From Patescibacteria group bacterium (GTDB lineage: Bacteria; Patescibacteriota; Patescibacteriia; UBA10025; JAHIVO01), in the NCBI GenBank assembly GCA_041650915.1, contig JBAZKE010000002.1, positions 144,638 through 208,637 of the forward strand: a DNA stretch of 64,000 bases. The letters run 5' to 3'. Shown piece after piece: positions 25,906-62,935 of this stretch. Made by a program: the position numbers and the translations under genes. The notes under the pieces are model-generated. The model was not told where the DNA came from, made no database searches, and saw only the letters and a list, made by a program, of their open reading frames with translations. The first letter of the stretch is position 1, and each line of letters starts with the position of its first letter.

Positions 25906-25920
25906 ATTTTTAAATAATTG

Positions 25921-26805: not shown

Positions 26806-26807
26806 AG

Positions 26808-27797: not shown

Positions 27798-27799
27798 AG

Positions 27800-29179: not shown

Positions 29180-29199
29180 TGGTGTTGGTGGTGTTAGTA

Positions 29200-30453: not shown

Positions 30454-31909
30454 CGTGCTTATTTTTAATGGCGCGACCGTAGAGCTGCACGTATTTTTTA
30501 GCGGGGAGCTCCCACGAGTACGACTGCTGCATCCCTCTCCACGTCAGGTATTCCCATGCCTGCGTGTATTTATAGTTTTCGAGTGCACGGGTCAGCGCGA
30601 TGAGGAACGCATCGCGCGCGTACTGCCGGAAAACGAATCCGTTTCCCTTCCTCGTTTTCGGATTGTAGTTCATGATCGTGTCAGAGAGCCCTCCCGTTTC
30701 GTGGACGATGGGTATTGAACCGTACCGGAGGCTCTTGAGCTGGGAGATGCCGCAGGGCTCAAACCGGGATGGCATGAGAAACATATCTGAGCCGGCATAC
30801 ACTTTGGATTCCATCTCTTCCGTGAAGGGGGTATAGATGGCGAGTTTCTTGGGGTACCGGCGCGCTACCTTTTTGAAGAAAATGACATACTCCCTGAAAC
30901 CGCTGCCAACGATGGCGATTTGCAGGTTCATGCGCATGAGCGTATCGATTGTTTCCATGATGAGCTTGAAGCCCTTTTGTTCGGTAAGGCGGTTAACCAC
31001 GCCGATCACTGGGATATCCGGGTTTTTTTCGAGGTTCAACTTTTTTTGGAGCACGAGCTTATTTTTCTTTTTGCGGCTGAGCGTATTCCAGTCGTATTTG
31101 AATTCAATGTTACCGTCGAATGCCGGATTATGGACGGTGTAGTCGATCCCATTGATGATTCCGTGCAGGTAATCTTTACGGTCGCTGAGGTACTTTTCGA
31201 GGCCTTGGCCGAATTCAGGCGTCGTGATTTCTTCCGCATACCGTTCGCTGACCGTATTGATGGCGTCTGCGTGGAGAATGCCGCGCTTGGAAAAATTGAG
31301 ATATTTCAATTTGCCGATACGCTGCAGCGGATTGCCTTTCCCGTCATCGGCGTAGTATTTTTTCAGTTTCCACCAGTCTCCGCCCGACTGAAAGGTGAGG
31401 TTGTGTATCGTAAAAACTGATGCCGTATTCCGCAGCGAGGGGTACTTGGAACCCTCAAACCGCATCATATTTGGAATGAGTCCGGCTTGCCAGTCGTGGC
31501 AGTGGATGACGTCGGGCTTCAGCCTCTTAAGCTCAATCAGTTTGAGCGCTGCAATGCTGAACGTGCAAAATCGGAGGTTATCGTCCGGGTGCCCGTATAT
31601 TTTTGACCGCCCCGTGAAGAGCTTTTCGTTGGCTACGAAGTAGATCCGGAGGTTCTTGCTGAAGTCGAACGCGTAGTAGGAAATTGGAAATTTATTCCTG
31701 CCGACGACGACCGTCGATTTAACGTTCAGTTTTTCGAGTGGGAGGCCCTGCTGCTTTATGAAGCTATAGTACGGAGTAATAATCGAAACCATGTGCCCGA
31801 TGTTCGCGAGCGCTTTCGGCAGTGCCTTGGCGACGTCGCCGAGGCCGCCCGTTTTAGAGTAGGGAGCGACTTCTGAGGCGATACTCGCAATGTGGAGGCT
31901 GGAAGTCAT
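30434..31909 (-). CDS. glgA: Glycogen/starch synthase (GT5 family), copy 2
   Basis: IASEVAPYSKTGGLGDVAKALPKAL KTGGL motif. 491 aa. 20-nt overlap with the GH57 paralogue. Confidence 0.85.
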   Translation of the reverse strand: MTSSLHIASIASEVAPYSKTGGLGDVAKALPKALANIGHMVSIITPYYSFIKQQGLPLEKLNVKSTVVVGRNKFPISYYAFDFSKNLRIYFVANEKLFTGRSKIYGHPDDNLRFCTFSIAALKLIELKRLKPDVIHCHDWQAGLIPNMMRFEGSKYPSLRNTASVFTIHNLTFQSGGDWWKLKKYYADDGKGNPLQRIGKLKYLNFSKRGILHADAINTVSERYAEEITTPEFGQGLEKYLSDRKDYLHGIINGIDYTVHNPAFDGNIEFKYDWNTLSRKKKNKLVLQKKLNLEKNPDIPVIGVVNRLTEQKGFKLIMETIDTLMRMNLQIAIVGSGFREYVIFFKKVARRYPKKLAIYTPFTEEMESKVYAGSDMFLMPSRFEPCGISQLKSLRYGSIPIVHETGGLSDTIMNYNPKTRKGNGFVFRQYARDAFLIALTRALENYKYTQAWEYLTWRGMQQSYSWELPAKKYVQLYGRAIKNKHDAQSKH

Positions 31910-33247: not shown

Positions 33248-34330
33248 ATGAAAAAAAAGAGTATGGCGCTCGACAGCCCCAAGAGGGTCGAGCAGCTCGA
33301 TACGCAGGGCATGGTACAGTCCATTGAGTCGCTCGCGCTGCAGTGCGAGCAAGCGTGGAATGATGTGAAGCGGATCCGCGTACCGCGGCAGTACCGCACG
33401 GTGGAAAATATTGTCATCAATGGCATGGGGGGTTCGGCGCTCGGAGGGCATATCATTGCGGCACTTTTTGAGCGCGAGCTCAAGAAGCCGCTCCACGTGG
33501 TCAATAGCTATACGGTTCCGGGCTTTGTGAGCAGGAGTACGCTGTATGTCATTTCGAGCTACTCAGGCACAACCGAGGAGCCGGTTTCGACATTCCGCGA
33601 AGCTCGGAAGCGGGGAGCGAAAGTCATGTTTATCGGCGCAGGGGGGACGATCGCGGCGTACGCGAAACGGTATCGGATCCCTGCTTACATTTTTGAACCC
33701 CAGTTTAACCCGTCGGGCCAACCGCGGATGGGGCTCGGGTATTCAATCGTCGGCCAGGTTGCGCTCTTCAGGCGGCTAGGGCTGCTCTCGGTGAGCGATG
33801 CGGCAATGCGAAGTGTTGTAGAGCGTATTATTAAGCTGCACCACGAGTACGGAGTGAGGGTTCCGGCAAGCCGTAATGCCGCAAAGGAAGCGGCCCTCGC
33901 ACTCCACGGGGCGATACCGGTATATGTCGGCGCGCAGCACCTCGCCGGCAACGCGCACGTCTGCGCGAACCAGACGAACGAGAATGGCAAGACATTTGCG
34001 GCATACTTTACCGTATCAGAGCTCAATCACCACCTCATGGAGGGGCTGCGGTATCCGGCATCAAATCCACGCAACCTTCATTTCGTGTTTTTTGAATCGG
34101 GCAGGTACCTGCCGAAGATACAGAAACGCTTTACCATCACACAGAAGGTGCTCCGAAAGAGCGGGATTCCGTTCGAGGCGGTGAGGGTGCGTTCGACAAG
34201 CGCGCTCGAGCAGGTTTTTGAGGTACTGGTATTTGGCAGCTACCTCAGCTTTTACCTCGCACTCCTACGCGGCATTGACCCTTCTCCGATTCCATTCGTC
34301 GATTACTTTAAGAAGCAGCTGCAGCAGTAG
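33248..34330 (+). CDS. Bifunctional phosphoglucose/phosphomannose isomerase family (SIS domain, archaeal-type PGI/PMI)
   Basis: Two SIS-like segments (INGMGGSALGGH ... VISSYSGTTEE). Overall length and pattern match the PGI/PMI family. Confidence 0.65.
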   Translation: MKKKSMALDSPKRVEQLDTQGMVQSIESLALQCEQAWNDVKRIRVPRQYRTVENIVINGMGGSALGGHIIAALFERELKKPLHVVNSYTVPGFVSRSTLYVISSYSGTTEEPVSTFREARKRGAKVMFIGAGGTIAAYAKRYRIPAYIFEPQFNPSGQPRMGLGYSIVGQVALFRRLGLLSVSDAAMRSVVERIIKLHHEYGVRVPASRNAAKEAALALHGAIPVYVGAQHLAGNAHVCANQTNENGKTFAAYFTVSELNHHLMEGLRYPASNPRNLHFVFFESGRYLPKIQKRFTITQKVLRKSGIPFEAVRVRSTSALEQVFEVLVFGSYLSFYLALLRGIDPSPIPFVDYFKKQLQQ

Positions 34331-34416: not shown

Positions 34417-35997
34417 ATGCAATTGTGCCGCCGCATCGTACAGTTTTTTATGCAACACTGGTGGTTTGTATCGTACCTCCTGCTGTTTGCTGTTGCGATT
34501 TCGTTCCTCGCTTATTTCCAGACAACACCGGCGTTTCCGGACCCGGATTCGTTTTACCACGCGAAGATGGCACTGCTCATCGCCGATGAAGGTTTGCCGA
34601 CGAGTTTCCCCTGGCTGCAGGCAACCGTGCTCCGCGACAGCTTTATAGACCAGCACCTCCTGTACCACGTTTTTTTAATTCCATTCGTCAAGCTCATGGA
34701 TCCACTGCAGGGGGCAAAGTTTGCAAATGTGCTCATCGGGACTGCGCTCATCGTTTTTTTCTACCACCTTCTCAGGTCGCAGAAGGTGAAGTTCGCTTTT
34801 TGGTTTAGTGCTGCCCTGCTCGCCACGATGCCGTTTACCTTCCGGATCAGCCTCGTGAAAGCTCCCGGCTTTTCAATCCTGCTTTTGCTCGTGGGGCTGT
34901 ACTGCATACTCAAACACCGCCACCGGGCGCTATTTTTGCTCAGCATGCTGTACGTGTGGGCATACGGCGGATTCCTGCTCATCACCGTTCTCGCCGGTTC
35001 GTACGCATTCATTTCCGTGCTGTGGAACTGGGCTGAGCGCAGGCCGCAGAACTCGCTCTGGAGGATTGCGAGCCACAGCCATGAAGTTAAACTTTTCCTG
35101 TCCGCAGCGGGGGGCGTCATCGCAGGCCTCGTCATCAATCCGTATTTTCCCCAGAACCTTACCTTCTACTGGCACCAGCTCGTTAAAATCGGCATCGTTA
35201 ATTACCAAAATGTGATCTCGGTTGGCAATGAGTGGTACCCGTATAAGTTCGTAGATCTCATGGCGAGCACGACGATCGTCTCGATAATTCTGCTGCTCGG
35301 GCTCTACCTGTTTTTTTTACGGTACCGCAAGCCAACGAAAAAGCTCATCACGAGTTTTGTGCTCTTCCTCTTCTTTATGTTCATTACGCTTAAATCGCGC
35401 CGCTACGTAGAGTACTACGTTCCGTTCGCGATCATCTTCGATGCGTTCCTCGTTAGCCACCTCATTAGGTCGGTCGACTGGAGAGAGCTCTGGCGGTCTA
35501 TCGCCGGCTTTTACCAGAAACGCCGGGTTATTTCGACGCTGCTTATCGTATACGTGCTCGTCATGCTCCCGACCGTCATTATCCGGGATGTCAAGAAGAC
35601 GTATGCGGATTTTAAAAACGGCATTTCGGTGCACCGGTTTGAGGATGTCTCCGTGTGGCTCATGCGCTACAGCAGTCCCGGAGACGTGGTATTCCATTCG
35701 AGCTGGGATGAGTTTCCGATACTGTTCTACCACAATGCCCAGAACTACTATACCGCAGGGCTCGATCCGACGTTTACTTACGAGTACAGTGAAGAATTGT
35801 ACCGAAAAATGGTCGATATAACGGTCGGTACCCAGAAGTCGAACTTGCATGAAGATATTGCCGGCAAGTTTGGAGCGTCGTTCGTGTTCGTAGAAGCAAA
35901 TCACGGGCAGATGGACGGCAATATCCAACGCAGCCCGGGATTCCGGCGCGTGTACCATGATGACGAGGCAACAATTTATGAGGTTCTTAGCTTATGA
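34417..35997 (+). CDS. GT-C-like polytopic membrane protein (putative membrane glycosyltransferase)
   Basis: 526 aa with 12 or more predicted TM helices. First extracytoplasmic loop has an FPDPDSFYH acidic motif reminiscent of GT-C DxD loops. Start uncertain (poor SD). Confidence 0.45.
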   Translation: MQLCRRIVQFFMQHWWFVSYLLLFAVAISFLAYFQTTPAFPDPDSFYHAKMALLIADEGLPTSFPWLQATVLRDSFIDQHLLYHVFLIPFVKLMDPLQGAKFANVLIGTALIVFFYHLLRSQKVKFAFWFSAALLATMPFTFRISLVKAPGFSILLLLVGLYCILKHRHRALFLLSMLYVWAYGGFLLITVLAGSYAFISVLWNWAERRPQNSLWRIASHSHEVKLFLSAAGGVIAGLVINPYFPQNLTFYWHQLVKIGIVNYQNVISVGNEWYPYKFVDLMASTTIVSIILLLGLYLFFLRYRKPTKKLITSFVLFLFFMFITLKSRRYVEYYVPFAIIFDAFLVSHLIRSVDWRELWRSIAGFYQKRRVISTLLIVYVLVMLPTVIIRDVKKTYADFKNGISVHRFEDVSVWLMRYSSPGDVVFHSSWDEFPILFYHNAQNYYTAGLDPTFTYEYSEELYRKMVDITVGTQKSNLHEDIAGKFGASFVFVEANHGQMDGNIQRSPGFRRVYHDDEATIYEVLSL

Positions 35998-37229
35998 TAC
36001 AGCGCATTCCATTCAGCAAGCAGATGGTCCCGCTTTTCATTGCGGTAATCGCCGTCGCCGTCGCTGCAGCCATCGCGATCGCCGCCCCCGACAAGCTGCT
36101 GATTCCAGCGGATAATGCCGATGCGGGAGTACGCATGCTGCGGGATGATTTTGAGCTGAGCGTTTTTTACAACCGCGGCAGCTGGCTCCTGAACGGTTCA
36201 ACTCCGTACGACCCCGAATTGTTTCAGGAGTATCCCCAGCTCGGGCTCATGTATGTTTCGCTGCCGCACGTTTTTAGCAGTTCGTACGCGGGCTACCGTA
36301 CCGCGCTGATCGTCATGAACCTGCTGGCGTATGGTGTGCTGATCGTCGTCACCTACCTCATACTCAAAAAACTCGGCAGGAGCAGCTGGCTTCTCCTCCT
36401 TTTTGCGCTGCCTTCAATGCTGTATTTTGCGATGAACAGGTTTGATATTTTCGTTGTACTGCTCGCGCAGGTCAGCCTGTACTTGCTTCTGTCAAAGCGG
36501 TATACGGCGTCCTGCGTCCTGCTTGCGGCCGCTGTGCTGACGAAGTGGTACCCGATTATCTTTGCGCCCGCGTATGCGCTCTACATGTACGCCCAGCTTG
36601 GCCCGGTTCAGTATCGGGCAGCATTGAAGCGGGGCATGATCGCGTTTTGTGCGATCGTTGTGGGTGTTATGGGATTAAGCTTTATGGTAGACGGAGTCCA
36701 TTCACTCGTGCCGTACCTTTTTCACTCTTCCCGGCCTGCTGGCGTTGGCAGTTTCTACTTCCATGTTGTGCAGCAATTTTTGCTCGGGCTCGGCCTTGAG
36801 CAGGTGAACTATTTCGGCATCGCAGTTTTTTTCTTCCTGCAGTTTATGATTCCGCTGCTCCTCCTCGTACGATTCAAGAAGCTTTCCGCTGCCCCCAGAG
36901 GTGATCGTTCATTGGTTTTATGGCTGACATTAGCAGTTTTTACGTTTATTCTTTTCTCTCGGTTTTATTCGCCGCAGTGGGTTCTGTGGTTCTTGCCGCT
37001 GCTCGTGCTCGTTGCGAGGACAAAGCTCGAGGTGTTCCTTATCATTATTTTTGATATCATTAATTACCTCGCATTCCCGGTGATCTGGCAATCGCTTGGG
37101 CACCAGTCAAGCTTGTTTACCGCATCGTCGCTCTCGCTGGTCGCGATCCTCGTCATTCTCACCGCCCTCGCGGCGAGGCAGGCCATCTCAGCGGGCCGCT
37201 TGCCGCCGCCAGTGCGGAGTAAGCTATAG
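35994..37229 (+). CDS. DUF2029/GT87-like polytopic membrane protein
   Basis: 411 aa with 9 or more TM helices. Pattern (AMNRFDIF ... LTKWYPIIFAP) resembles DUF2029 (glycosyltransferase 87-like) proteins. 4-nt overlap with the upstream gene. Confidence 0.4.
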   Translation: MIQRIPFSKQMVPLFIAVIAVAVAAAIAIAAPDKLLIPADNADAGVRMLRDDFELSVFYNRGSWLLNGSTPYDPELFQEYPQLGLMYVSLPHVFSSSYAGYRTALIVMNLLAYGVLIVVTYLILKKLGRSSWLLLLFALPSMLYFAMNRFDIFVVLLAQVSLYLLLSKRYTASCVLLAAAVLTKWYPIIFAPAYALYMYAQLGPVQYRAALKRGMIAFCAIVVGVMGLSFMVDGVHSLVPYLFHSSRPAGVGSFYFHVVQQFLLGLGLEQVNYFGIAVFFFLQFMIPLLLLVRFKKLSAAPRGDRSLVLWLTLAVFTFILFSRFYSPQWVLWFLPLLVLVARTKLEVFLIIIFDIINYLAFPVIWQSLGHQSSLFTASSLSLVAILVILTALAARQAISAGRLPPPVRSKL

Positions 37230-38668
37230 TGCCTATGCGAATTTTCACTGATCAGGAAAAAAAGCTGGCGTTTTACGGGTTCTTGTTTGTGGGGCTCTAT
37301 CTATACTTTTTCTTTTTTTCGCTTGTCGTACTCCGTTGCCTTCCGTTTATCAGGGAGCTGTACCTCGTAAAAATGGTAGCAGTTGAAATGGGCAGGTGGA
37401 CTCCGGCCGTTTTTTTGGTGCTACTCGGCCTCGTATACTATGTGGTGGCAAAAAAATTTAGCTCTCAGCACATCTCCAGGCAGTCGGTTCCGGTCGTGCT
37501 ATTTTTTGCGGTTATTTTTCACCTCCTTCTTTTGCTCAGCTTTCCGACCCTCTCGGCGGACATCACGGGCTACATAGCGCGTTCGACGATTGTGACTGAA
37601 CACCACCAGAATCCGTACCGGGTGACGCCAGACGAGGTTGATCCCTCGCTCTACACAAACTGGAGCGACACAAAGATGGCGTACGGCCCGCTCTGGACGC
37701 TTATCGGCTCCTACACCCGAATTTTTAGTGGCGATCAGGGAGCAAACTTTTTTATTTTCAAGCTCGTGACAGTAGCATTCAGCGCCGGATGTGCCGTACT
37801 CGTATATGGGATTGTCCGCCGCCTCAAGCCGGGGCGCGAGCGGCTCGCGCTGCTCCTGTATCTCTGGAATCCGCTCATCCTTGTCGAAACGGTCGGGAGC
37901 GGCCACAATGACGTCGTGCTCGCCTTCTTCTTGCTCCTTGCCGTTTATTGCGCCGTAAGCGGGCGCCGGCTTCTGTCATTTGTCGCGCTCGCCTTGTCTG
38001 CGCTCGTGAAGTATGTCACGGTCGTTGCGGTACCGTTTTTCCTGCTCCTGTATTGGTGGCAGGGCGGCAAGCGCAGTGAACGTGCCGTTTTTTCACTGAA
38101 GGGCGCATTCATCATGGTCGTGACGGCCGTTGCGGTCGTGTTTCCGTTCTGGGGGGATGGGTTTCTCGAGGGCATTTTTCAGCACTCGCAGTCGCTCGGC
38201 GGCACCTTGCTGTTTGGGGGCATAGCAAATACGCTGGCGTACTTTATCATCGTCATCCTCATGGGTTCCCCATTTGATTCGGCAGCCGTCCACAGCGTAG
38301 TCAGCAATGCAAATGCCGCATTTCTGGCCGTAGCGCTTATGGTACTGTTATCCGTTTACCTGTACCGGCAGAAAAAATCGTATGTTGATTGCATTGCCAT
38401 GCTGCTGCTCGTGCTGTTTGCAATCGCGGTGTTGAGCCCGTTCTTTTTCCAGCCCTGGTACTACGTGTGGGGGCTCGGGCTCCTCATCGTCTGGGGCGCC
38501 GTTGTTCGGGACGGGCGGTACCTGACGCTCGCTGCACTCGCTTCATTCGCAGGTCTGTTTACCTACACAATTTTCAGCATTGTCTCTATACTGATAGGTA
38601 TCGCGCTGTTTACGATGGAGCGGCTCTCGGGGGACGTAAAAGGTTTTTTTAAGCAGCTGCGGGCTTAA
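37229..38668 (+). CDS. DUF2029/GT87-like polytopic membrane protein, paralogue
   Basis: 479 aa, multi-TM. GHNDVVLAFFLLLAV ... KYVTVVAVPFF resembles the preceding gene. 1-nt overlap with the upstream stop. Confidence 0.4.
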   Translation: MPMRIFTDQEKKLAFYGFLFVGLYLYFFFFSLVVLRCLPFIRELYLVKMVAVEMGRWTPAVFLVLLGLVYYVVAKKFSSQHISRQSVPVVLFFAVIFHLLLLLSFPTLSADITGYIARSTIVTEHHQNPYRVTPDEVDPSLYTNWSDTKMAYGPLWTLIGSYTRIFSGDQGANFFIFKLVTVAFSAGCAVLVYGIVRRLKPGRERLALLLYLWNPLILVETVGSGHNDVVLAFFLLLAVYCAVSGRRLLSFVALALSALVKYVTVVAVPFFLLLYWWQGGKRSERAVFSLKGAFIMVVTAVAVVFPFWGDGFLEGIFQHSQSLGGTLLFGGIANTLAYFIIVILMGSPFDSAAVHSVVSNANAAFLAVALMVLLSVYLYRQKKSYVDCIAMLLLVLFAIAVLSPFFFQPWYYVWGLGLLIVWGAVVRDGRYLTLAALASFAGLFTYTIFSIVSILIGIALFTMERLSGDVKGFFKQLRA

Positions 38669-38684
38669 TATTCATTGTTACGGT

Positions 38685-40310
38685 ATGGGCATTGCGGCGT
38701 ATGTGAAGAGTTTCACGAAAGGGGAATGGTGGTTTTTGGTTGCCATCGCCATCGGAGTCATTGCTGTCACCGGTTTGCCATACGTGTACGGCTGCATGAC
38801 AGCCCCCGCGGGGACGGTTTATACCGGCCTGCACCACCTGACCCCTGGCGACACGAATGTTTTCCTGTCGATGATTGAGCAGACTAAACAGGGGGAGAAC
38901 GTTTTCATCAATCTCTATACATCGGAGCCACAGGAGCGGCTCTTTGTGAATCCGCTTTGGCTCTCCGTCGGATGGATCGGCAGGCTGCTCGGGGCTTCAG
39001 GCTTGCTCGCGCTCCACATTGCCCGTTCGCTGCTCATCGCGGGATTTATTTTTGTCGCATACCTCTTCATTGCTTATTTTATTGAGAAGCGGAGCTACCG
39101 CCGCTGGGCGCTCCTTTTGCTCGTTTTTTCATCGGGACTCGGGGTATTTTTTAATCCATTTTTGTTTGATACGAGCAATATCTACGAACACCCGACCGAT
39201 ATCTGGGTCGCTGAGAGCATAACGTTTTTGACGCTGTACCACTCGCCGCACCTCGTCGCTTCACTGATGCTGATTATACTCGTTTTCCTGCTGATGCTTT
39301 TTGCGTTCAGCACAGGCAAGTTCCGCTACAGCGCCGGCGCAGGGGCGGCATGTCTGCTGCTCGTTTGGTTCCACCCGTTCAACGGACCGACTGTATTTGC
39401 GGTGCTCGGGATATACATTTTCGCTTATTCAATAGTAAAGCGAAAAATAGTGTGGTCGTTCGTGCGGCACTACGTTGTTCTCGGTTTGTTTGCCGCGCTT
39501 CCGGTCGCGTACCTGTACTGGCTGTACCGGGCCGACTGGGTAATCCGCAGCTGGTCATCACAGAATATACTTCCGTCGCCGAGCGTCTGGATGTACCTCA
39601 TCGGTTTTGGCGCTGTTCTGCTTTTTGCCATCGTCGGGGCGTGGCGCGTATTGAAAAAACAGGGCTCGAAGCAGCTCTTTATCGTGTGTTGGGCTGCAAC
39701 TTCAGCGGTATTACTCTACGTGCCGGTTGATTTCCAACGGCGGCTGTCGGAAGGCCTGCACGTGCCGCTCGCGCTGCTCGCCTTCCTCGGCATCAGCTAC
39801 GCTGTCGGGCGGTTGCGGGAGACGTACGGCGCGGATACCGCTCGCGTGTACATCCTCATGATGCTCCTCATCGTATTTTTACCGCTGACAAACATACAGA
39901 TACTCGGACAGGATCTGTACATGTATTCCACCAAGAAGACCCTTCCGTACTACCTGTACGAAGGCGAAGTCGAGGCGATGCACTGGCTCCGCGATAACGC
40001 GGCCGAGCGCGAAATCACCTTTTCGAGCTACTATATGGGCAATTTTATTCCGGCGTATTCAGGAAGGATCGTGTGGATCGGGCACGGGCCGCAGACGATC
40101 GACCTTCCCCGAAAAAAAATTGCTTCGGATTGGTTCTGGGAAGCGGATGCCGAGATTTCAGAAAAGCGGCAGTTCCTGTACGATGAGGGGATCAGCTTCG
40201 TTTTCTACGGGCGCAAGGAGGAGGAAATTGGCACGTTTGATCCGGATACCAAGCCATTTCTCGAGCAAGTTTTCCGGAATGAGGATGTATCAATTTATCG
40301 CGTTCAGTAG
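38685..40310 (+). CDS. Polytopic membrane protein with C-terminal extracytoplasmic domain (GT-C-like)
   Basis: 541 aa with an N-terminal multi-TM core and a roughly 150-aa soluble C-terminal domain. Architecture is like ArnT/PMT-type GT-C enzymes. No definitive motif. Confidence 0.35.
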   Translation: MGIAAYVKSFTKGEWWFLVAIAIGVIAVTGLPYVYGCMTAPAGTVYTGLHHLTPGDTNVFLSMIEQTKQGENVFINLYTSEPQERLFVNPLWLSVGWIGRLLGASGLLALHIARSLLIAGFIFVAYLFIAYFIEKRSYRRWALLLLVFSSGLGVFFNPFLFDTSNIYEHPTDIWVAESITFLTLYHSPHLVASLMLIILVFLLMLFAFSTGKFRYSAGAGAACLLLVWFHPFNGPTVFAVLGIYIFAYSIVKRKIVWSFVRHYVVLGLFAALPVAYLYWLYRADWVIRSWSSQNILPSPSVWMYLIGFGAVLLFAIVGAWRVLKKQGSKQLFIVCWAATSAVLLYVPVDFQRRLSEGLHVPLALLAFLGISYAVGRLRETYGADTARVYILMMLLIVFLPLTNIQILGQDLYMYSTKKTLPYYLYEGEVEAMHWLRDNAAEREITFSSYYMGNFIPAYSGRIVWIGHGPQTIDLPRKKIASDWFWEADAEISEKRQFLYDEGISFVFYGRKEEEIGTFDPDTKPFLEQVFRNEDVSIYRVQ

Positions 40311-42331
40311 GAGAGTTCGTACGGTTTTCCGACTTCATCCCTCTCGGTGATTGAAATTGCCGCAGAGCGGATGCCGTTTAGTTGCATGGTTCCGTGTATA
40401 CGGACGATCTGGATGCTGACATGGTAGCTGCTGGCCGAATACTCGCGTGGTATGAGAAACCAGTGGTTTGTTTTTACCGTGCTGCCGTTTTCCCACGAGC
40501 TCGTCGGATACAGTCCGTATCCGAGCTGGTACAGCTTCTCGTATACGTTATTGCCAGAGCCGTCGCGGATGGCGAGCTCGATTTGGTAATCATCAGTAAG
40601 AATTCCATGGACTTGCCAGTAGAGTGCAATTGGCAGGAGTCCGTACGGCGTCGTGCTGCCGTCCTGTTCGATTGGTTCCATGCCGACGAGGCTCAGCGGG
40701 CTGCTGGCGTTATTGGAGGTGCGCCGCACGTTTACAGGAAGCTGTTCAACGGATTCATACAGCGTAACGGCTGGCTGGATGCCGCGGCGGTAGAGGGCGA
40801 TATCGTCAATGATTTTTACTATTCCAAAGCCCCGTTCCTCGATCAGGCGTACGATCCGTTCGCTTCCGGTCGGGTACTGCTCGCTGTATGAGGTGATGGT
40901 TTCGGATTGAATGTTGTATACGATGAAATCACTGAAGTCGATGAGGAGCGTGTCCGCTGTATCCGGTATCGCGTATGGTTCGTCTGAGAATTGTTTTTTC
41001 CCCAGGAATGCATAGTGCAGGGAGTAGAGCTCAGGCCGCTGGGAAAGGTGTGGAAGAAACGAAAAGCTGGACACGACGCGGTCGGCACCATCGATGTGGT
41101 CAATAAATTCGCGGCAGAGGGCGCGGTATTCGCCCGCTGCTCCATTGTGGACCAGTGCCCTGGCAGAACCGATGAGCGGGCTGAACGTTACGAATGAGTA
41201 CAGTATCGCCGCTCCGAGAATGATGTATCCGATCGGCTGTTGCTTTGTAAAGAAACTGGTGAGCTTCCGTTTTTTGTACGCACCGCCGCGGATTGACCCG
41301 AGTCCGGCTGCTGCGGCGATGTAGAGAAATGGCACGATGAGCGCGGCGTAGTGTGTTTGCAGGATGACGGTGCTGCTGACGCCGGTCAAGAAGAGCTGGC
41401 CGGCGGTGAGGGCAACCGGGATTAGGTACCGCAGCTTGAGGATCGGGAGGAAGATAAGCGGCATGAGCAGCCCGACAGCCAGCAGAATGTTGTTGAAGCT
41501 GATAACTTGCTTGAGCACAAGGTGCGGTTTCAGAAAAAAGTTTTTAACGATCTCGCCGGGCGTTTCCCCGAGCCAGGAGTAGAAGCTCAGGAATTTATTG
41601 GAACCCGATACGTTGAAGTAACCCGTGAGCTGCAGGGCAGCAGCGAACCAGAGGATGCCCGCGGCGATCGGGACGAGCGCCCAACGCATCGGCCGCCGGT
41701 CGATGAGCGCGAGTACGCCGAACATCACGACGACGAGCGCGACATCTTCACGTACAAGCAACGACAGCAGAAGGAATGCGGTGAAGGGGATGAAGCGCTT
41801 TTCTGTGTAGAACAAGAATGCGAATACGAGCAGCGGAACGGCGAAGGTGAGTATGTGGAATTCAAAAAAGAGCATGTTGAGCACGAACGGGCACAGCAGG
41901 AATGACACCGCCGCTGCAAGTGACAGCCCAGCCGGGAGCCAGCGGCGTACAATGAGGTAGAGCGGCCACGCGGTGAGTGTAACGGCTGCCGTCTGAAGGA
42001 AGAGCAGCGTCAGCGGAGACTTGACGGCGGCGAAGAAGGGGACGAGTGCGAGGATGAAGAGCTCAAAGTGGTCGCCGAGGTACAGGTGGGGGTGGACGGT
42101 AAATTCGAAGAGCTGGCCGCCTGCCGTGTTGAAAAAAACCTGGCCGTAAATGCCGAGGTCAATCGCGTTGTAGCCGAAGCTGCCGTACTTGTCCATGAGC
42201 GCGAAAAAAATTCCGCACGTCGCCAGTACGATGGCTGCCCAGAGCGCCTTTTTACTGGTGCGGTCGCGGTCGAGGCAGCGCATGAGTTCCAGAACAGCTT
42301 TTTTCATAGGGTAATTGTATCGCATGCGCAC
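40304..42331 (-). CDS. DUF2079 family membrane protein (GT-C-like)
   Basis: YGQVFFNTAGGQLFEFTVHPHLYLGDHFELFILALVPF matches the conserved DUF2079 N-terminal signature. 675 aa with a large C-terminal soluble domain. Confidence 0.6.
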   Translation of the reverse strand: MRMRYNYPMKKAVLELMRCLDRDRTSKKALWAAIVLATCGIFFALMDKYGSFGYNAIDLGIYGQVFFNTAGGQLFEFTVHPHLYLGDHFELFILALVPFFAAVKSPLTLLFLQTAAVTLTAWPLYLIVRRWLPAGLSLAAAVSFLLCPFVLNMLFFEFHILTFAVPLLVFAFLFYTEKRFIPFTAFLLLSLLVREDVALVVVMFGVLALIDRRPMRWALVPIAAGILWFAAALQLTGYFNVSGSNKFLSFYSWLGETPGEIVKNFFLKPHLVLKQVISFNNILLAVGLLMPLIFLPILKLRYLIPVALTAGQLFLTGVSSTVILQTHYAALIVPFLYIAAAAGLGSIRGGAYKKRKLTSFFTKQQPIGYIILGAAILYSFVTFSPLIGSARALVHNGAAGEYRALCREFIDHIDGADRVVSSFSFLPHLSQRPELYSLHYAFLGKKQFSDEPYAIPDTADTLLIDFSDFIVYNIQSETITSYSEQYPTGSERIVRLIEERGFGIVKIIDDIALYRRGIQPAVTLYESVEQLPVNVRRTSNNASSPLSLVGMEPIEQDGSTTPYGLLPIALYWQVHGILTDDYQIELAIRDGSGNNVYEKLYQLGYGLYPTSSWENGSTVKTNHWFLIPREYSASSYHVSIQIVRIHGTMQLNGIRSAAISITERDEVGKPYELSY

Positions 42332-42345
42332 CCGGAAAACAAACC

Positions 42346-42372
42346 CCCCCGTCCGAAACGGACGGGGGGGGA
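42346..42372 (-). terminator. Strong intrinsic terminator hairpin
   Basis: CCCCCCCGTCCG-aaa-CGGACGGGGGGG 12-bp GC stem. On the minus strand it is followed by TTTGTTTTCC, downstream of the pilin-like gene. Confidence 0.6.
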
Positions 42373-42393
42373 GATATGTAGAATTACTTTGCT

Positions 42394-42756
42394 TTATGCA
42401 CCCGTTACGTTCTTAGTTTGCGAGACAACGAATATGACGATTGCCCACGCAAGTAAGATAACGATGAGACCAATGACAGCCGCTGAGATGATTTTTTTTG
42501 CTGAAGCAACTTTCTCTTCGTTACCGCCAGCAGTCATCCACTGGAAGCCGCCAATGAGGATCATGATAACAGCTACGAGTCCGAGGAATCCGAGTACCCA
42601 CTGTACGATATTGATCACGGTTGCCTCGAGGTCAGCGGTACCGAGACCAAAGGTCGGACCGAGATCTCCTGTGCCAACCTGAGCTGCCGCAGCCATAGGG
42701 AGTGCGAGTAGACCGATAGCAAGTAAACCAGTTGTGATTTTTTTCATTGTATTCAC
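42394..42756 (-). CDS. TrbC/VirB2-like (T4SS-pilin-like) small membrane protein, copy 1
   Basis: Signal peptide plus two hydrophobic helices flanking IGGFQWMTAGGNEEKVASAKK, the conserved core of the T4SS_pilin/TrbC family. AAAGGGGGTGAATA SD. Confidence 0.55.
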   Translation of the reverse strand: MNTMKKITTGLLAIGLLALPMAAAAQVGTGDLGPTFGLGTADLEATVINIVQWVLGFLGLVAVIMILIGGFQWMTAGGNEEKVASAKKIISAAVIGLIVILLAWAIVIFVVSQTKNVTGA

Positions 42757-42887
42757 CCCCTTTCCGTAAGGTTGTTACAACTAAATTAAATGATATTTTT
42801 ACTATATATCAGTGCAGTATATGCCCCTTATCGCATTATGTCAAGGGTAACGGCTCTATTATACACTTAAATTAAAAATTTGTCAAA

Positions 42888-43283
42888 TTAGCTGGCAATG
42901 CCCCGAATAACGCCTTCGAAAACGAACTTGAGTACAGAGTAGCTGAGCGTAATGACGAGTATCCCAAGCGTCGCCCAGACGAGTGTATCCTTCGCCTTCT
43001 TGATGAGCGTCGGGTTGCCTGCTGAGATAAGGAATTCGAAACCTCCGAGAATAAACATAAAGAGGGCGAAAATATCAACGCAAGCCAGGCAGAGCTGCAT
43101 CGCGCGGATCATAATAGAGATGAGATCCATGTTTTTCCCGAGGATATTCGGCAGCTTTACACTGCTCGTACTATCATCGCCGCCATCATCCTGCCCCATG
43201 GCAACCGCCGGCAATAGCAACATGCCTGCCGCGAATAGTGCGATGCACAGGGTTACGGAAATGGTAAGGTAATATTTTGCCAT
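42888..43283 (-). CDS. TrbC/VirB2-like small membrane protein, copy 2
   Basis: LGGFEFLISAGNPTLIKKAKD core. Same architecture as copy 1. Acidic stretch after the signal peptide. Confidence 0.5.
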   Translation of the reverse strand: MAKYYLTISVTLCIALFAAGMLLLPAVAMGQDDGGDDSTSSVKLPNILGKNMDLISIMIRAMQLCLACVDIFALFMFILGGFEFLISAGNPTLIKKAKDTLVWATLGILVITLSYSVLKFVFEGVIRGIAS

Positions 43284-43323
43284 AGGGGAAAACTCAATAG
43301 GTTAAGTATAGCACACTCGTTTA

Positions 43324-44094
43324 CTATGGGGTGGAATTACACTGGGCGATATTTTGGCAGGTATTGGCGCTCCACAGGTGGGTAGCGGGAGACCCGAGGC
43401 ACCCGGTCGACGAAGTCACCGGGAAACAGCCATTGCTGCCGTCTTTTGGCACGCAGCACGTGTTGGTGTTTGCATACTGGTCACACGCAGCTGCGTAAAT
43501 ATCACACGAGCGCGCTTCGTGGAAGGCGGCATCAATGCCGGAGCGCGCTTCGTACTCAGCGCATACGGTCTCATTGACGTAGGCGCAGCCAAGATTGGTA
43601 AGCGTGCAGCACCCCTCGATCGGCGTTACGATTTCACCTTCACCGCCGCCCCACCACTCTTTTTGCCAGACATCGTACTCAGGGAAAACGTTTGGGCTGC
43701 CGGTCAGCACGAACACGACGAAATAAGACCACGCCCATGCCATGAAGAGGATGATGATGATGCCGAGCACGATCGAGCCGACCATCTTCTTGCCTTCTTG
43801 GATTTTTGTCGGGTTACCGCCTGCCATGATGAGGTTGAATCCCGCCCAGATCATCATGATCATGGTAATGTACGGAAGCACCTTAAGGCCGACGGATGCA
43901 ACATTCACAAACATCTGGATGAAATCATCCGCATTGCAGTTGCCCTCATCGAGCGCGCAGTCGGGCAGGATCTGGAATCCGCTGTCGTACCGTTCGTATT
44001 CGTACGCGTTTGCGGTACGCGGCGGCAGTGTGGCTGCGCAAGAGACTGAGATCGCTATCGCGAGCAGGATGATGATTTTTTTCCGGTGAGACAT
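43324..44094 (-). CDS. TrbC/VirB2-like membrane protein with Cys-rich C-terminal extension, copy 3
   Basis: WAGFNLIMAGGNPTKIQEGKK core, then a second TM and a roughly 100-aa extension with about 14 Cys (CCTLTNLGCAY...C..C..CC). Confidence 0.5.
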   Translation of the reverse strand: MSHRKKIIILLAIAISVSCAATLPPRTANAYEYERYDSGFQILPDCALDEGNCNADDFIQMFVNVASVGLKVLPYITMIMMIWAGFNLIMAGGNPTKIQEGKKMVGSIVLGIIIILFMAWAWSYFVVFVLTGSPNVFPEYDVWQKEWWGGGEGEIVTPIEGCCTLTNLGCAYVNETVCAEYEARSGIDAAFHEARSCDIYAAACDQYANTNTCCVPKDGSNGCFPVTSSTGCLGSPATHLWSANTCQNIAQCNSTP

Positions 44095-44097
44095 AGG

Positions 44098-45489
44098 CTA
44101 GTATCCCTGTTGGATTTTATTTGCGGCGAGATCGATTGCATCCTTGATTCCGGCGGTGCCCGCTGCAACGGTCTCAACCATGATGCCGAAGTACTCATCG
44201 GCTTCTTCGGGGCTCCGGCCGTGGTACCAGCTCCGTGCGGTGAGCGCCTGCTGTGCGAAGACCGCAAGCTCGGGATCCTGGAGCTGTTCATTGATGACCG
44301 CTCTCAGCGCGCTCACCTGGCCGGTATTGGCAAGGTACGGGCGTACCTGCTGGTTGCTCGCCGCGTACTGGACGAAATTCCACGCGAGCTCGGAGCGCGG
44401 GGACTGCCGGGCTACCGTGTAGAGCCAGTAGTTCGCCACGCTGATCGGGGTTTGCGCATTGACCTGCGGCACCGGCGCGATCGCGTAGTCTATTCCGCTC
44501 GCCTTGGAGCGGATTTCCTCGTCCTGGTACCGGTATCCGAGGAAGAAGGCGAGCCGCCCGTCCGCAAAGGAATCGAGCGCATTCGGCATGGTACTGTTCC
44601 AGGTGTAGACTGATTTGGAGTTTTTTGCAAAGTCCGTATAGAATCTGAGCGCCTCCTGGCCGGGGAAGTATGTTCCATCGCTGCCGGAAGCCGTATTGAA
44701 GTAGACGCCCTTGCCGTCGGACATATTCGTGCCGTTCTGCATCATGAGGAGCGTCACGATATCGCTCGCCCGGGGGATATTGTCATACGTGCCGAGCGCA
44801 GCGCCTGCCCTGATGATATTGTCTTCGGCATCGAGGACTGCGATGCGCGTTACGACTCCGGTGAATTCATCCCACGTCACGGGAGGTTCGGCGACTCTCG
44901 CGTAGCCCAGAAGGGTCCGGTTGTAGTACATTGAGAGAGAGTCCATGGCGAGCGGGAGTGCGTATATCTGGTCGTTGAAAACGACGTCGCCGTATACCAC
45001 GTCGACAAAGTCACTTTTAATCCTCGCGGGGGTGAGTGACGGCTCTGTCGCGGGGGTGATCTCCGTCTGTTCCTGGAAGAGCACCTTTTTTGTCGTATAG
45101 TAGTATACGTTTGTTGCAACCGGCATTGGCGCGATGAATTCATCCGACCGGAATTTGTTTACCCACGAGTGGGGCAGCATGTAGATATCGGGGCCGGTAT
45201 TTTTTGCCCACGCCTTGATGAGCATGTCCTCGTATTCTTCGAACCTGACCTTCACGTAGTTTACCGTTACGTACGGGTGGAGGAATTGGTACCCATCGAT
45301 GATCTCCCGTAAGTCGCTCGTATCATCCCATACGCCCCATACGGTCAGCGTCTGCTTCGCCGGCGGCGTTACCGGATTCTGGAAAAGCATGATGAAAACG
45401 ACGCCGAGTATGACAAGGGCGATGAAGCCGAGCACCATAACGATAAAAAGCTTCGACAGGCCGGTCCTCTTTAAAATTTCCGCAGTCAT
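44098..45489 (-). CDS. ABC transporter extracellular solute-binding protein (family 1, carbohydrate type)
   Basis: N-terminal TM/signal anchor followed by the SBP_bac_1 pattern (LTVWGVWDD...). 463 aa. Confidence 0.75.
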   Translation of the reverse strand: MTAEILKRTGLSKLFIVMVLGFIALVILGVVFIMLFQNPVTPPAKQTLTVWGVWDDTSDLREIIDGYQFLHPYVTVNYVKVRFEEYEDMLIKAWAKNTGPDIYMLPHSWVNKFRSDEFIAPMPVATNVYYYTTKKVLFQEQTEITPATEPSLTPARIKSDFVDVVYGDVVFNDQIYALPLAMDSLSMYYNRTLLGYARVAEPPVTWDEFTGVVTRIAVLDAEDNIIRAGAALGTYDNIPRASDIVTLLMMQNGTNMSDGKGVYFNTASGSDGTYFPGQEALRFYTDFAKNSKSVYTWNSTMPNALDSFADGRLAFFLGYRYQDEEIRSKASGIDYAIAPVPQVNAQTPISVANYWLYTVARQSPRSELAWNFVQYAASNQQVRPYLANTGQVSALRAVINEQLQDPELAVFAQQALTARSWYHGRSPEEADEYFGIMVETVAAGTAGIKDAIDLAANKIQQGY

Positions 45490-46371
45490 CTACGTGCGTT
45501 GTTTAGTGATTGAGCGCAGGTATTGCAGGAGCTCGACTGACAGGTCGTCCCGCATAAGGGCAAAATCAATGTTTGCCTTGAGGTATTCGAGCTTGCTGCC
45601 CGTATCGTAGTATGTGCCGTTTATAATTTCACAGGCGTATACCGGTTCATCTTTCATCAATTTTTGGACGGCATCGACGAGCCAGAGCTCGTTATCTCTG
45701 CCAGGGGCCAGATTGGTGAGGTGCGGCATGATGCCCGGGGTAAAGACATACCCGCCGTGCGTCGCGAGGTTCGAGGGGGCGGATCCGGGTTTCGGTTTTT
45801 CGACAATTGATTTTATTCGAAAAATATTATCCCTGACCGGCGTTACGTCCGCGATGCCGTACTTTGAAACATCCTTTTTATTTGGGATGCGGACGGCGCT
45901 AATGACTGATTTTCCAAACTCTCCGTAGACATCAATGAGCTGCTTGAGCCGCGGCGGGGCGCTGTAAATGAATTCATCGCCCCACAGGACGGCGAATGGC
46001 TCGTCGTCGAGCAGGTGGCTCGCCGAGAGAATGGGCGTCCCGTTGCCGTAGCAGCCTTTTTGCCGCACATAGATAAAATTGGCCATCTCAGCAATGTCCC
46101 TCATCTGCCGCAGGAGCTCTGTTTTTCCGGTTTGCTCCAGTTGCCGCTCGAGCTCGTACGAATGGTCAAAGTGGTCTTCGAGTGACCGTTTTTGCCAACT
46201 CGTAACGATGATAATGTCTTTGATGCCCGACTGTACCGCTTCCTCGACCACGTACTGGATTATCGGCTTGTCGACAATCGGCAGCATTTCTTTCGGCTGT
46301 GCTTTTGTGGCAGGCAGAAAGCGCGTCCCGAAGCCTGCAGCGGGTATGATGACTTTGTGGATTTTTTTCAT
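45490..46371 (-). CDS. galU: UTP--glucose-1-phosphate uridylyltransferase
   Basis: KVIIPAAGFGTRFLPATKAQPKEMLPIVDKPIIQY, the GalU N-terminal signature. Confidence 0.85.
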   Translation of the reverse strand: MKKIHKVIIPAAGFGTRFLPATKAQPKEMLPIVDKPIIQYVVEEAVQSGIKDIIIVTSWQKRSLEDHFDHSYELERQLEQTGKTELLRQMRDIAEMANFIYVRQKGCYGNGTPILSASHLLDDEPFAVLWGDEFIYSAPPRLKQLIDVYGEFGKSVISAVRIPNKKDVSKYGIADVTPVRDNIFRIKSIVEKPKPGSAPSNLATHGGYVFTPGIMPHLTNLAPGRDNELWLVDAVQKLMKDEPVYACEIINGTYYDTGSKLEYLKANIDFALMRDDLSVELLQYLRSITKQRT

Positions 46372-46413: not shown

Positions 46414-47478
46414 CTAAAAAGTAAAATTTATCATGCGTTCAATGATGTGTTGCCCGTCTTCAGGAGAGAGTACCTGCGGCTGGGCGTAATCGCGTATCCG
46501 TACGGGCGTGATTGAGTACTCAAGTACCCCGCCCTCTGAGAGGGTAACCGAGGCGACAGCGCCCTCGGTCGTCTCATCCGACCACATCTGGTCGAATACG
46601 AAGTTTCCGAGGCTGTACAGGATGAGGCCGTTTCCGTACTCTTCAATTGGCTGAACGACGTGCGGGTGGTGCCCGATGACGACACGCGCACCGCTGTCGA
46701 TCGCAGTCCGGGCAAGGTCCTGCTGGTACTCGCGTGGAGTGTCTTCGTATTCGACCCCGGCGTGCAGCGATACGACCACGATATCAACGGCTGCACTGAG
46801 CCCAGCAACATCTCGGGCGAGCGAGTCCTCATCGAAAAAAGCCACTCCGGCCCGCTCTTCCGATGCCCGGTCGCCTGCTGAAGTGAAGCTGCCATCAGTA
46901 TACGCGAGATAGCCGACGGTATAGCCGGATGCTTCCACTATTGCGGGCAGCGCCGCTTCGCCGGCATTCAAGCCTGCGCCAGCGTGGGCAATGCCGGCAG
47001 CATCAAGCACTTCAAGCGTGCGCGCTATTCCAGGCCTGCCCTGGTTGCCCACGTGGTTATTTGCGAGGGATACAACGTCAAAACCGCCGAGGGTGAGGCC
47101 TTCGACCGATTGCGGGTCTGCGCGGAAGGACATTTCGTACGGGTTAACGGGCGAGCCTTCGATAAGCGGGCATTCGAGGTTGCCGAACGTGATATCCCCG
47201 CTCTCGGTGAGGATGTGCGTTTCCCGAAACGGGTACGCCCAGTCGCCGTATTGGAGCATTTTTTTTTCGACTGTCCGCGATAGCATAATATCACCCACCG
47301 CGATGAGCGTAATTGGCTCTTTTTCGGATGCGTGCGCTCCCGGAGCCAGAGCGTAGGGCGCGGGACCCCGGTCAGGCTGCGCCAGGAAGCCGTACCACGT
47401 AAGCAAGCCCATTGCCGCCAGTGAAGCGCCCGCGAGCAGCACGCAGCTGAGTGCGTACCTTTGATTCTTTTTTTCCAT
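46414..47478 (-). CDS. CapA family (poly-gamma-glutamate/capsule biosynthesis, metallophosphatase fold) protein
   Basis: LIAVGDIMLSR ... GNLECP ... ANNHVGNQG ... GHHPHVVQP motifs of CapA/PGA_cap. N-terminal signal anchor. Confidence 0.75.
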   Translation of the reverse strand: MEKKNQRYALSCVLLAGASLAAMGLLTWYGFLAQPDRGPAPYALAPGAHASEKEPITLIAVGDIMLSRTVEKKMLQYGDWAYPFRETHILTESGDITFGNLECPLIEGSPVNPYEMSFRADPQSVEGLTLGGFDVVSLANNHVGNQGRPGIARTLEVLDAAGIAHAGAGLNAGEAALPAIVEASGYTVGYLAYTDGSFTSAGDRASEERAGVAFFDEDSLARDVAGLSAAVDIVVVSLHAGVEYEDTPREYQQDLARTAIDSGARVVIGHHPHVVQPIEEYGNGLILYSLGNFVFDQMWSDETTEGAVASVTLSEGGVLEYSITPVRIRDYAQPQVLSPEDGQHIIERMINFTF

Positions 47479-54024: not shown

Positions 54025-54035
54025 GGGTTTGTGAA

Positions 54036-62914: not shown

Positions 62915-62935
62915 ATTTATATATTATGGGTTAAT

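Follow-up and report, generated by a model that had tools for sequence, protein, structure and literature searches.

A conserved Patescibacteria gene module combining VirB2-like proteins with GT-C-type membrane proteins, and its possible role in surface glycosylation

A conserved locus of VirB2-like and GT-C genes

We analyzed a 64-kb window (the whole stretch of DNA under study) of a Patescibacteria metagenome-assembled genome (MAG). It carries one copy of a conserved gene module, in which an array of three VirB2-like genes (p1, p2 and p3) adjoins five genes for large polytopic membrane proteins (g1 to g5) that we assign to the GT-C glycosyltransferases, g5 as a candidate. The core of the module is widespread in Patescibacteria. 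It reads galU, a gene for an orphan sugar-type substrate-binding protein (SBP), a variable number of minor VirB2-like genes, a major VirB2-like gene and a DUF2079 gene, facing genes for oligosaccharyltransferase-like (OST-like) and GT87-like GT-C proteins together with the isomerase gene pgi. We tentatively favor the view that the module serves a glycosylation process on the outer side of the membrane, which is coupled to a surface structure of VirB2-like type and in which the pilin-like proteins are the likely acceptors. Patescibacteria, which also go by the name candidate phyla radiation (CPR), account for a large part of bacterial diversity, and their cultivated members are all host-attached. 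To our knowledge, little has been established on the construction and decoration of their surface structures.

The neighborhood was derived from a listing of open reading frames (ORFs) and their translation, which exactly reproduced the gene boundaries of an earlier reading made from the DNA letters alone (the sequence-only reading). On the plus strand, the gene order is pgi-g1-g2-g3-g4. All junctions overlap or nearly abut, and the five genes therefore probably form one operon. The minus-strand genes capA, galU, SBP, p3, p2, p1 and g5 converge on g4, the 3' ends of g5 and g4 sharing 7 nt (window 40304-40310). The GT-C genes, described in the sequence-only reading as a run of five consecutive genes, are instead distributed over two strands, with g1 to g4 on the plus strand and g5 convergent with them on the minus strand. 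A tail-to-tail overlap of g5 and g4 of 3-30 nt, unusual for convergent genes, was kept in most related loci (L052-L131).

Conservation of this layout was followed in loci anchored on g4, g5 or p1. The g4-anchored set comprised 43 loci on contigs from one genome per species. In Patescibacteria loci with enough flanking sequence, the arrangement of pgi-g1-g2-(g3)-g4 facing g5, pilins, SBP and galU recurred. The pilin array adjoined g5 in 22 of 23 loci, the inverted loci L019 and L022 included, and the order survived inverted or rearranged layouts (L019, L022, L026 and L033) with arrays of 3 to 9 pilins. In L019, a locus deposited under the name Saccharibacteria, the genes read galU, SBP, six pilins, DUF2079 and g4. 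In most related loci, pgi was located upstream of g1 and galU upstream of the SBP gene.

The g5-anchored set was independent of the g4 anchor and consisted of 80 loci on metagenome contigs, with 31-51% identity to g5. Upstream counts required at least 600 nt of sequence (62 loci) and downstream counts at least 1.8 kb (58 loci). VirB2-like ORFs were found directly upstream of g5 in 61 of the 62 loci, in arrays of up to 12 genes. There were 28 complete arrays (3-12 genes) bounded by an SBP gene, and the SBP stop codon was 10 nt or less from the first pilin gene in 20 of them. A convergent GT-C gene was present in 53 of 58 loci, mostly overlapping g5 tail to tail, and was g4-like in 47 of 58. Among the GT-C candidates, g5 thus has the tightest linkage to the pilin array. 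The synteny comparison proposed in the sequence-only reading therefore came out in favor of a conserved GT-C/pilin linkage, which was kept across about 100 loci, rearranged ones among them.

The adjacency could nevertheless be meaningless, reflecting a gene order inherited in one lineage, with GT-C cluster and pilin array functionally unrelated. Close relatives share the whole 25-kb neighborhood, including glycogen genes and yebC, and a terminator separates p1 from g5. However, the core of SBP gene, array, DUF2079 gene and convergent GT-C genes persists despite differing flanks, array sizes from 3 to 12, inversion and protein identities of 30-35%, and the tight junctions at both ends of the array-g5 unit are likewise difficult to reconcile with neutral adjacency. 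We disfavor this explanation and consider it very improbable.

Seven p1-anchored look-ups revealed two conserved locus types. Three of them (L046, L049 and L050) showed the GT-C/pilin module. The second type, represented by L044 (from the MAG of the window itself), L047, L048 and L051, contains a solitary p1 paralogue, 64-71% identical to p1, between dnaB/Band_7 on one side and genes for a P-type cation ATPase and AspRS on the other. In L044, the solitary p1-like gene occupies positions 10001-10354 of contig k141_1347418; in L051, the solitary gene is duplicated.

The five polytopic membrane proteins

The genes g1 (34417..35997, plus strand, probable start at 34450) and g4 (38685..40310, plus strand) encode proteins of 526 and 541 aa, respectively, both with a C-terminal alpha/beta domain, which in g1 follows about 12 transmembrane (TM) helices. 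Neither protein had a match in Pfam or NCBIfam profile searches, and homologue searches placed them in large families, almost exclusively from Patescibacteria, without Pfam annotation. AlphaFold2 models were obtained with pLDDT values of 93.4 (g1) and 95.5 (g4). Foldseek comparison of the models with the PDB gave 24 matches for g1 and 23 for g4 at E<1e-3, and every one of them was a GT-C protein. STT3, AglB and PglB headed the matches, with ArnT, ALG9/12, DPY19 and AftA/AftD next. The best match was STT3 for g1 (1.4e-9, TM-score 0.66) and AglB for g4 (1.5e-9; then STT3, PglB, DPY19 and AftA). According to their predicted folds, g1 and g4 are GT-C enzymes, each of an unnamed family, and only the fold comparison exposed them as such. 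When the PDB was searched by sequence, neither the single proteins nor the family profiles of g1, g4, g5, g2/g3 and the pilins had a meaningful match. A transporter identity of the membrane proteins was discarded, as transporters appeared in the g1 and g4 fold searches only at E>0.1 and with TM-scores of 0.15 or less.

The best fold matches of g1 and g4 are to OSTs (STT3/AglB/PglB, GT66), with E-values around 1e-9 and TM-scores of 0.5-0.66. Like the OSTs, both proteins have a soluble domain at the C-terminus, and their first outer loop contains a D-x-D or Asp motif. The lumenal ALG enzymes offer a further likeness: there, several GT-C proteins build a glycan before an OST-like transfer step, which would fit the set of enzymes in the window. 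In contrast to OSTs, g1 and g4 lack a Pfam STT3 match and the WWDYG motif, their C-terminal domains are much smaller, and their candidate acceptors show no sequon enrichment (see below). An invariant SWDEF (S-W-D-E-F) is present in g1 and has no counterpart in g4. The OST (GT66) label was therefore dropped for both proteins, despite the OST-like fold.

The product of g3 (37229..38668, plus strand, 479 aa) matched Pfam GT87 (PF09594) at 9e-9 and 35.8 bits (cut-off 25), and also matched the MptA equivalog TIGR03459 of NCBIfam (3e-13) and, weakly, PMT_2. The product of g2 (35994..37229, plus strand, 411 aa), translationally coupled to g1 by a 4-nt overlap, stayed just under the GT87 cut-off (23.8 bits, 4.4e-5), matched PIG-M at 1.4e-3, and proved homologous to g3 (hhalign 99%, E 2.9e-18). 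Profile evidence thus identifies g3 as an MptA-like GT-C protein by an above-threshold GT87 match, and g2 as a GT87/PIG-M-like one by its homology to g3. The g3 gene is accessory and missing from several close relatives (L006-L010). The remaining protein, g5 (40304..42331, minus strand, probable start at 42307, 675 aa), matched DUF2079 at 3.4e-50 and carries a C-terminal extracytoplasmic domain of about 230 aa. Its profile had a weak tie to the GT87-like profiles (hhalign 72-84%), and DUF2079 presumably belongs to the Pfam clan of the GT-C proteins. We regard g5 as a GT-C candidate, with the weakest evidence of the five.

Hydropathy scans indicated a polytopic N-terminal membrane module of about 8-13 TM helices in all five proteins, and the models of g1 and g4 contain 11-13 membrane helices. 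Invariant acidic residues are found in the first outer loop after TM1, namely D42-x-D44 in g1, D56 in g4 and D58 in g5; D111 of g3 is conserved in 16 of 25 g2/g3 sequences. Further invariant residues are E272 and W430-D431 in g1 and R194-E195-D196 in g5. BLASTP comparison among g1 to g5 detected no mutual similarity. Profile comparison linked g1 with g4 (hhalign 97.7%, E 1.9e-12), and together with the g2/g3 relationship it gives three subfamilies (g1 and g4, g2 and g3, and g5), so that five paralogues of a single family are excluded.

Much of what the sequence-only reading had said about these proteins was borne out by the profile searches and structure predictions that it had recommended: five GT-C-like polytopic proteins, with DUF2079-like (g5) and DUF2029/GT87-like (g3, g2) signatures. 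Two statements had to be revised. The "GT-C paralogues" are not one set, and C-terminal soluble domains, ascribed to two members, are present in three (g1, g4 and g5).

GT-C clusters may also exist outside Patescibacteria. On a Dehalococcoidia chromosome (OZ244809.1, L041:9935-20540), a g4 homologue heads six consecutive genes for polytopic proteins of 497-763 aa with GT-C-like N-terminal motifs, suggesting multi-GT-C clusters beyond Patescibacteria as well.

VirB2-like proteins, sugar donors and candidate acceptors

The p1 gene (42394..42756, minus strand) encodes a putative major subunit and matched PF18895 at 6.9e-14 (52 bits). Its real start is the ATG at 42747, giving a protein of 117 aa. 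The signal peptide ends in AAAQ, a GGNEEK loop connects two long hydrophobic helices, and the C-terminal tail contains Thr. The mature N-terminus is VGTGDLGPTFGLGTADLE and the tail SQTKNVTGA. A protein identical to p1 is named "pilin" by NCBI. The p2 gene (42888..43283, minus strand) encodes a putative minor subunit, similar to p1 in BLASTP (5e-12) and below the PF18895 threshold (4e-4). In the window, its exposed N-terminal segment is short with a high Ser/Thr content; in an alignment, relatives contained low-complexity inserts rich in Ser, Thr, Gly and Asn. The p3 gene (43324..44094, minus strand), for a second putative minor subunit, combines a VirB2-like module (BLASTP to p1, 4e-10) with a Cys-rich extracytoplasmic C-terminal domain. 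It also falls under the PF18895 threshold, which its orthologue in L008 passes with 31.5 bits. The three proteins are mutual paralogues (BLASTP 5e-12 to 4e-6), and some p1 homologues additionally match TrbC (PF04956). On this profile and paralogy evidence p1 to p3 are VirB2-like (PF18895) proteins, and the description of three tandem paralogous genes resembling type IV secretion system (T4SS) pilins was upheld.

The Cys-rich repeat of p3-type proteins has no Pfam family. Orthologues of p3 grow to 560-660 aa with 56-66 Cys and GCC[VI]-type repeats, and in some loci a PG_binding_1 domain replaces the Cys-rich domain of the gene at the p3 position. Fusions in the first gene of the array were listed for L008:14572-16557, L001:12700-14388, L017:14672-16429, L022:3717-4955, L046:7455-8270 and L050:8-736. 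The Cys-rich part is C-terminal in p3-position genes and N-terminal in L022.

Expression and conservation signals set p1 apart. Two tandem sigma-70-type promoters precede it (42816..42886, minus strand), with TTGACA-17-TATAAT (12/12 consensus positions) and TTGACA-17-TATACT (11/12), and the perfect 12/12 promoter was found ahead of p1 in 10 of 14 related loci. An intrinsic terminator follows p1 just before g5 (42344..42370, minus strand), with a 12-bp stem containing 11 G-C pairs and then the T tract TTTGTTTT. The hairpin was kept in 14 related loci, with differing stem sequences. In 66 arrays, a strong terminator-like hairpin followed the last pilin gene in 61% of cases, compared with 2% for other pilin genes, and a near-perfect promoter preceded it in 37% compared with 4%. 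Mature p1 was 87% identical in 14 relatives (median), the highest value in the neighborhood (GalU 72%, g4 55%). Because of the perfect promoter, the strong terminator and this identity, we consider p1 the putative major subunit. It looks like an abundant, strongly constrained structural protein, and a variable antigen would not be expected to look like this.

Neither the ORFs of the 64-kb window nor the flanks of related loci included virB4, virB6 or another T4SS gene, and a T4SS locus was accordingly excluded for the window. Searches with the pilin profile against solved structures detected no VirB2 or TraA match by sequence. These results leave room for another interpretation, in which the small proteins would be VirB2-fold membrane hairpins that organize or anchor an envelope complex rather than filament subunits. 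With the SBP they would make up an apparatus for capturing sugars or handling glycans, in which the Cys-rich or PG_binding_1 domains would touch the cell wall or host surface and captured or exported glycan would be modified by the GT-C proteins. The fusion of VirB2-like modules to Cys-rich repeats or peptidoglycan-binding domains at the p3 position agrees with this view, as does an SBP that has no clustered permease or ATPase and is nonetheless translationally coupled to the array. On the other hand, p1 clearly passes the PF18895 threshold, TrbC matches occur among its homologues, and the very strong promoter, the terminator and the extreme conservation fit an abundant polymerizing subunit. 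The missing T4SS genes also lose weight, since a published survey reports T4SS genes for most Patescibacteria, in many assemblies at a distance from the pilin genes (PMC12102498). We consider the hairpin interpretation distinctly improbable.

In the literature, hundreds of Patescibacteria assemblies are described as containing tandem arrays of 2-11 divergent PF18895/VirB2-like genes, and some Patescibacteria as having T4SS genes close to dnaA (PMC12102498). A VirB2-like array within a T4SS cluster is essential in Southlakia epibionticum, the one CPR species tested (PMC10633639). The array of the window resembles these arrays in its tandem VirB2-like genes and its location within about 30 kb of dnaA. 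It differs in that virB4 and other T4SS genes are not beside it, in its SBP and DUF2079 GT-C flanks, and in its last gene, which is highly conserved rather than variable. One could imagine a CPR-specific filament of major p1 and 2 to about 11 minor subunits with adhesin-like extracellular domains. It would be glycosylated by dedicated GT-C enzymes, the SBP would bind glycans in host recognition, and assembly may be independent of a neighboring conjugation-type T4SS. In this detailed form the proposal is speculative and, in our estimate, rather unlikely.

Upstream of the array lie the genes that the sequence-only reading had listed as its followers, an SBP gene, galU and a CapA-family gene, and profile matches agreed with all three. 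The SBP (44098..45489, minus strand; SBP_bac_1, 1.4e-22) is a membrane-anchored, MalE-like orphan protein, and the stop codon of its gene is 3 nt away from the start of p3. Neither here nor in related loci did the cluster include a gene for a sugar permease or its ATPase. The only ABC genes of the window are of the ABC-2 type and about 11 kb away. In this respect the SBP departs from an ABC sugar importer, whose binding protein is encoded with its permease and ATPase. The abutting galU gene (45490..46371, minus strand; TIGR01099, 7.6e-97) encodes a UTP-glucose-1-phosphate uridylyltransferase. The capA gene (46414..47478, minus strand; PGA_cap, 6.9e-73) is peripheral to the module, being next to galU only in closer relatives. 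At the other end of the locus, pgi (33248..34330, plus strand), the first gene of the plus-strand operon, encodes a sugar-phosphate isomerase with a bact-PGI_C/SIS domain (Pfam bact-PGI_C, 8e-32). It may be a bifunctional glucose/mannose-6-phosphate isomerase, to judge from the domain match, and is a probable source of hexose phosphate.

A supply of UDP-glucose to the GT-C enzymes by GalU, as first proposed, is only partly tenable: the galU assignment stands, but UDP-glucose is not a direct GT-C donor. By analogy with known GT-C enzymes, g1 to g5 would use polyprenyl-phosphate-linked donors. Clusters of relatives hold GT2 genes with a Dpm1/Ppm1-type N-terminal motif, either between g3 and g4 or between g4 and g5, and these look like genes for polyprenyl-phosphate-sugar synthases. 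Also present there are a GT4 gene, additional GT-C genes of the PMT_2 type and flippase-like LPG_synthase_TM genes. In L003, for example, a putative GT2 synthase gene occupies 5448-6401 and an LPG_synthase_TM gene 9018-9971. Because of the GT2, PMT_2 and LPG_synthase_TM genes, the predicted gene content of the relatives fits glycosylation via lipid-linked sugars at the membrane's outer face.

As to the acceptor, the exposed pilin segments contain 16.6% Ser/Thr at the N-terminus and 27% in the short C-terminal tails, compared with 8-14% in neighboring proteins, and some pilins end in Pro/Thr mucin-like tails. N-x-S/T sequons were counted against composition-preserving shuffles. They were not enriched in the exposed pilin segments (28 observed, 28.7 expected), nor significantly in the Cys-rich domains (75 versus 65 expected, p ~0.1), and the SBP showed no excess either. 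With no sequon excess in any of these candidates and no WWDYG motif, N-glycosylation by OST-like g1 or g4 was rejected. From the modest Ser/Thr richness and the lack of sequon excess it follows that O-linked modification of the pilins is plausible, while OST-type N-glycosylation is unsupported. The search for Ser/Thr-rich acceptor segments suggested by the sequence-only reading was thus partly successful: Thr-containing tails and the p2 inserts are there, but the enrichment is modest.

We propose that the locus is one copy of a conserved Patescibacteria envelope module of two convergent gene sets. UDP-Glc from GalU and hexose phosphates from the isomerase would feed the pool of cytoplasmic sugar nucleotides. 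GT2 synthases would load the sugars onto polyprenyl phosphate for subsequent flipping across the membrane; the genes for synthase and flippase, in-cluster in relatives, would have to lie elsewhere in the genome of the window. The five GT-C enzymes, with active sites facing outward, would then transfer sugars at the outer face of the membrane. The likeliest acceptors would be the co-encoded VirB2-like proteins, modified in the N-terminal segments that are exposed, in the C-terminal tails rich in Thr and, for p3-type members, in the extracellular domains. In this scheme, g5 is the candidate modifying enzyme of p1, and the glycan would be lengthened or varied by g1, g4 and the GT87-like enzymes. 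We infer that the product is a glycosylated surface filament or surface layer and that the SBP may be its glycan-binding partner. The sequence-only reading had left the choice between glycosylation of the pilin-like proteins and synthesis of a surface glycan. The GT-C identity, the linkage and the donor genes of relatives speak for its general idea, with the pilin-like proteins as putative acceptors.

Several observations weigh against this proposal. The exposed parts of p1 are short, the Ser/Thr enrichment of the pilins is modest, and the sequon counts in pilin segments and Cys-rich domains are at or near expectation. Characterized GT87 enzymes act on lipoglycans and are not known to act on proteins. 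ORF annotation of the 64-kb window detected neither a GT2 synthase nor a flippase. The assignment of g5 to the GT-C proteins comes from the DUF2079 match, the 72-84% profile links and the presumed Pfam clan. With a strong terminator between it and g5, p1 is its own transcription unit. No GT-C, SBP or T4SS gene was found near the solitary p1 paralogue (L044, L047, L048 and L051). Finally, g4 homologues outside Patescibacteria occur without pilins, either as neighbors of uppS-cdsA and a GT87-like gene or as part of a row of genes for large membrane proteins.

Some of these observations would be accounted for if the GT-C enzymes acted in series on the outer face to build a lipid- or wall-anchored glycopolymer (lipoglycan- or teichoic-acid-like), with the pilins merely co-organised and not acceptors. 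The SBP might then hand over or bind glycan intermediates, in the manner of LpqW with the lipomannan of mycobacteria. The presence of three GT-C subfamilies in a single cluster suggests a polymer made in several steps, the MptA equivalog is matched by g3, and cluster content varies, with extra PMT_2, GT2 and GT4 genes. The missing sequon excess, the separate transcription of p1, its solitary paralogue away from GT-C genes, and the pilin-free neighborhoods of non-CPR g4 homologues (one of them a six-gene membrane-protein run) point in the same direction. A glycopolymer leaves unexplained, however, why, in 61 of 62 loci, no more than about 100 nt separate a DUF2079 gene from the last pilin gene, at g5 identities of 31-51% and through rearrangements, and why the SBP gene is translationally coupled to the first pilin gene. 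Moreover, no lipoglycan anchor pathway is evident within the window. We regard a glycopolymer, the main rival of our proposal, as quite possible, if doubtful.

The actinobacterial pathway to lipomannan/lipoarabinomannan and arabinogalactan involves PimE, MptA/B/C (GT87), Emb/Aft, Ppm1 and the SBP-like lipoprotein LpqW. It resembles the locus in that several GT-C enzymes work in series on polyprenyl-phosphate sugars, in the matches of g3 to the MptA model and GT87, in the Dpm1/Ppm1-type GT2 genes of relatives, and in an SBP-fold protein accompanying the enzymes. Its acceptors, however, are PIM-anchored lipoglycans and wall polysaccharide, its genes are not clustered with pilin-like genes, and no PIM pathway is evident in the window.

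A precedent for pilin glycosylation, the reading that we favor, is provided by Pseudomonas aeruginosa Pa5196. As Kus et al. are said to have reported in 2008, the GT-C arabinosyltransferase TfpW is encoded there beside its substrate PilA, a group IV type IV pilin. In both systems a GT-C gene adjoins the gene for the major pilus subunit, a putative one in the present case, where the DUF2079 gene is directly downstream of the last pilin. TfpW presumably uses a polyprenyl-phosphate sugar donor at the outer face and O-glycosylates exposed Ser/Thr, as we propose for the locus of the window. Unlike PilA, the subunits of the window are VirB2/TrbC-like (PF18895) and not type IV pilins. There are five GT-C genes of three subfamilies instead of one, the module includes an SBP gene and galU, the host is a monoderm-like CPR bacterium, and glycosylation is only proposed here.

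Searches of the literature brought up no mention of DUF2079 and no link of CPR/Patescibacteria pilin arrays to GT-C proteins, oligosaccharyltransferase or glycosylation, and the module was undescribed there. The stem "glycosyl" did not occur in the text searched of PMC12102498 and PMC10633639, and a preprint calls Saccharibacteria glycosylation unexplored (PMC11623550). The module of SBP, pilin array and DUF2079/GT-C genes thus appears not to have been described previously. It provides a testable link between pilin arrays, an orphan sugar-binding protein and five glycosyltransferases predicted to face outward, and with it a testable hypothesis for three uncharacterized GT-C families and for CPR surface biology. 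If the hypothesis is true, it would give a first function to DUF2079 and to two GT-C families without a Pfam model, and the first glycosylated VirB2-family pilins; if confirmed, pilin glycosylation would extend to the VirB2 family.

Setting of the locus in the window

The proteins of the window are identical to those of a MAG deposited as "Patescibacteria group bacterium", and homologue searches returned many named homologues from Candidatus Kerfeldbacteria. The wider window is an ordinary chromosomal Patescibacteria region, with dnaA, dnaN, tRNA synthetase genes, glycogen-type genes, murB, and genes for a class A PBP and a PilB-like ATPase. The genes yidC, dnaA and dnaN are found at 13210-17664 (dnaA/dnaN at 14.9-17.7 kb), and the cumulative GC skew has its minimum at about 14-16 kb. 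Therefore, the replication origin is inside the window, and the GT-C/pilin module is about 20-30 kb away from it.

A dense set of alpha-glucan genes precedes the module (23436-31909) and is syntenic with it in close relatives. It comprises genes for two GlgA-like starch synthases (GT5), two GH57 enzymes, a GalT-like/HIT protein, a PHP-domain protein and an APH-type kinase. The PilB-like T2SSE/type IV pilus assembly ATPase is encoded at 9317-11116, which means that type IV pilus machinery, separate from the VirB2-like genes, is also present in the genome. On the minus strand, an 803-aa protein with two ATP-grasp/Ddl-like modules is encoded at 54036-56447, and its gene is overlapped by about 130 nt by an ORF of 506 aa without a Pfam match (52648-54168). 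Over the final 2.2 kb (61800-64000), which contain surE and three small ORFs, the G+C content falls from about 54% to 37-41%; this end of the window could be a foreign segment or an assembly join.

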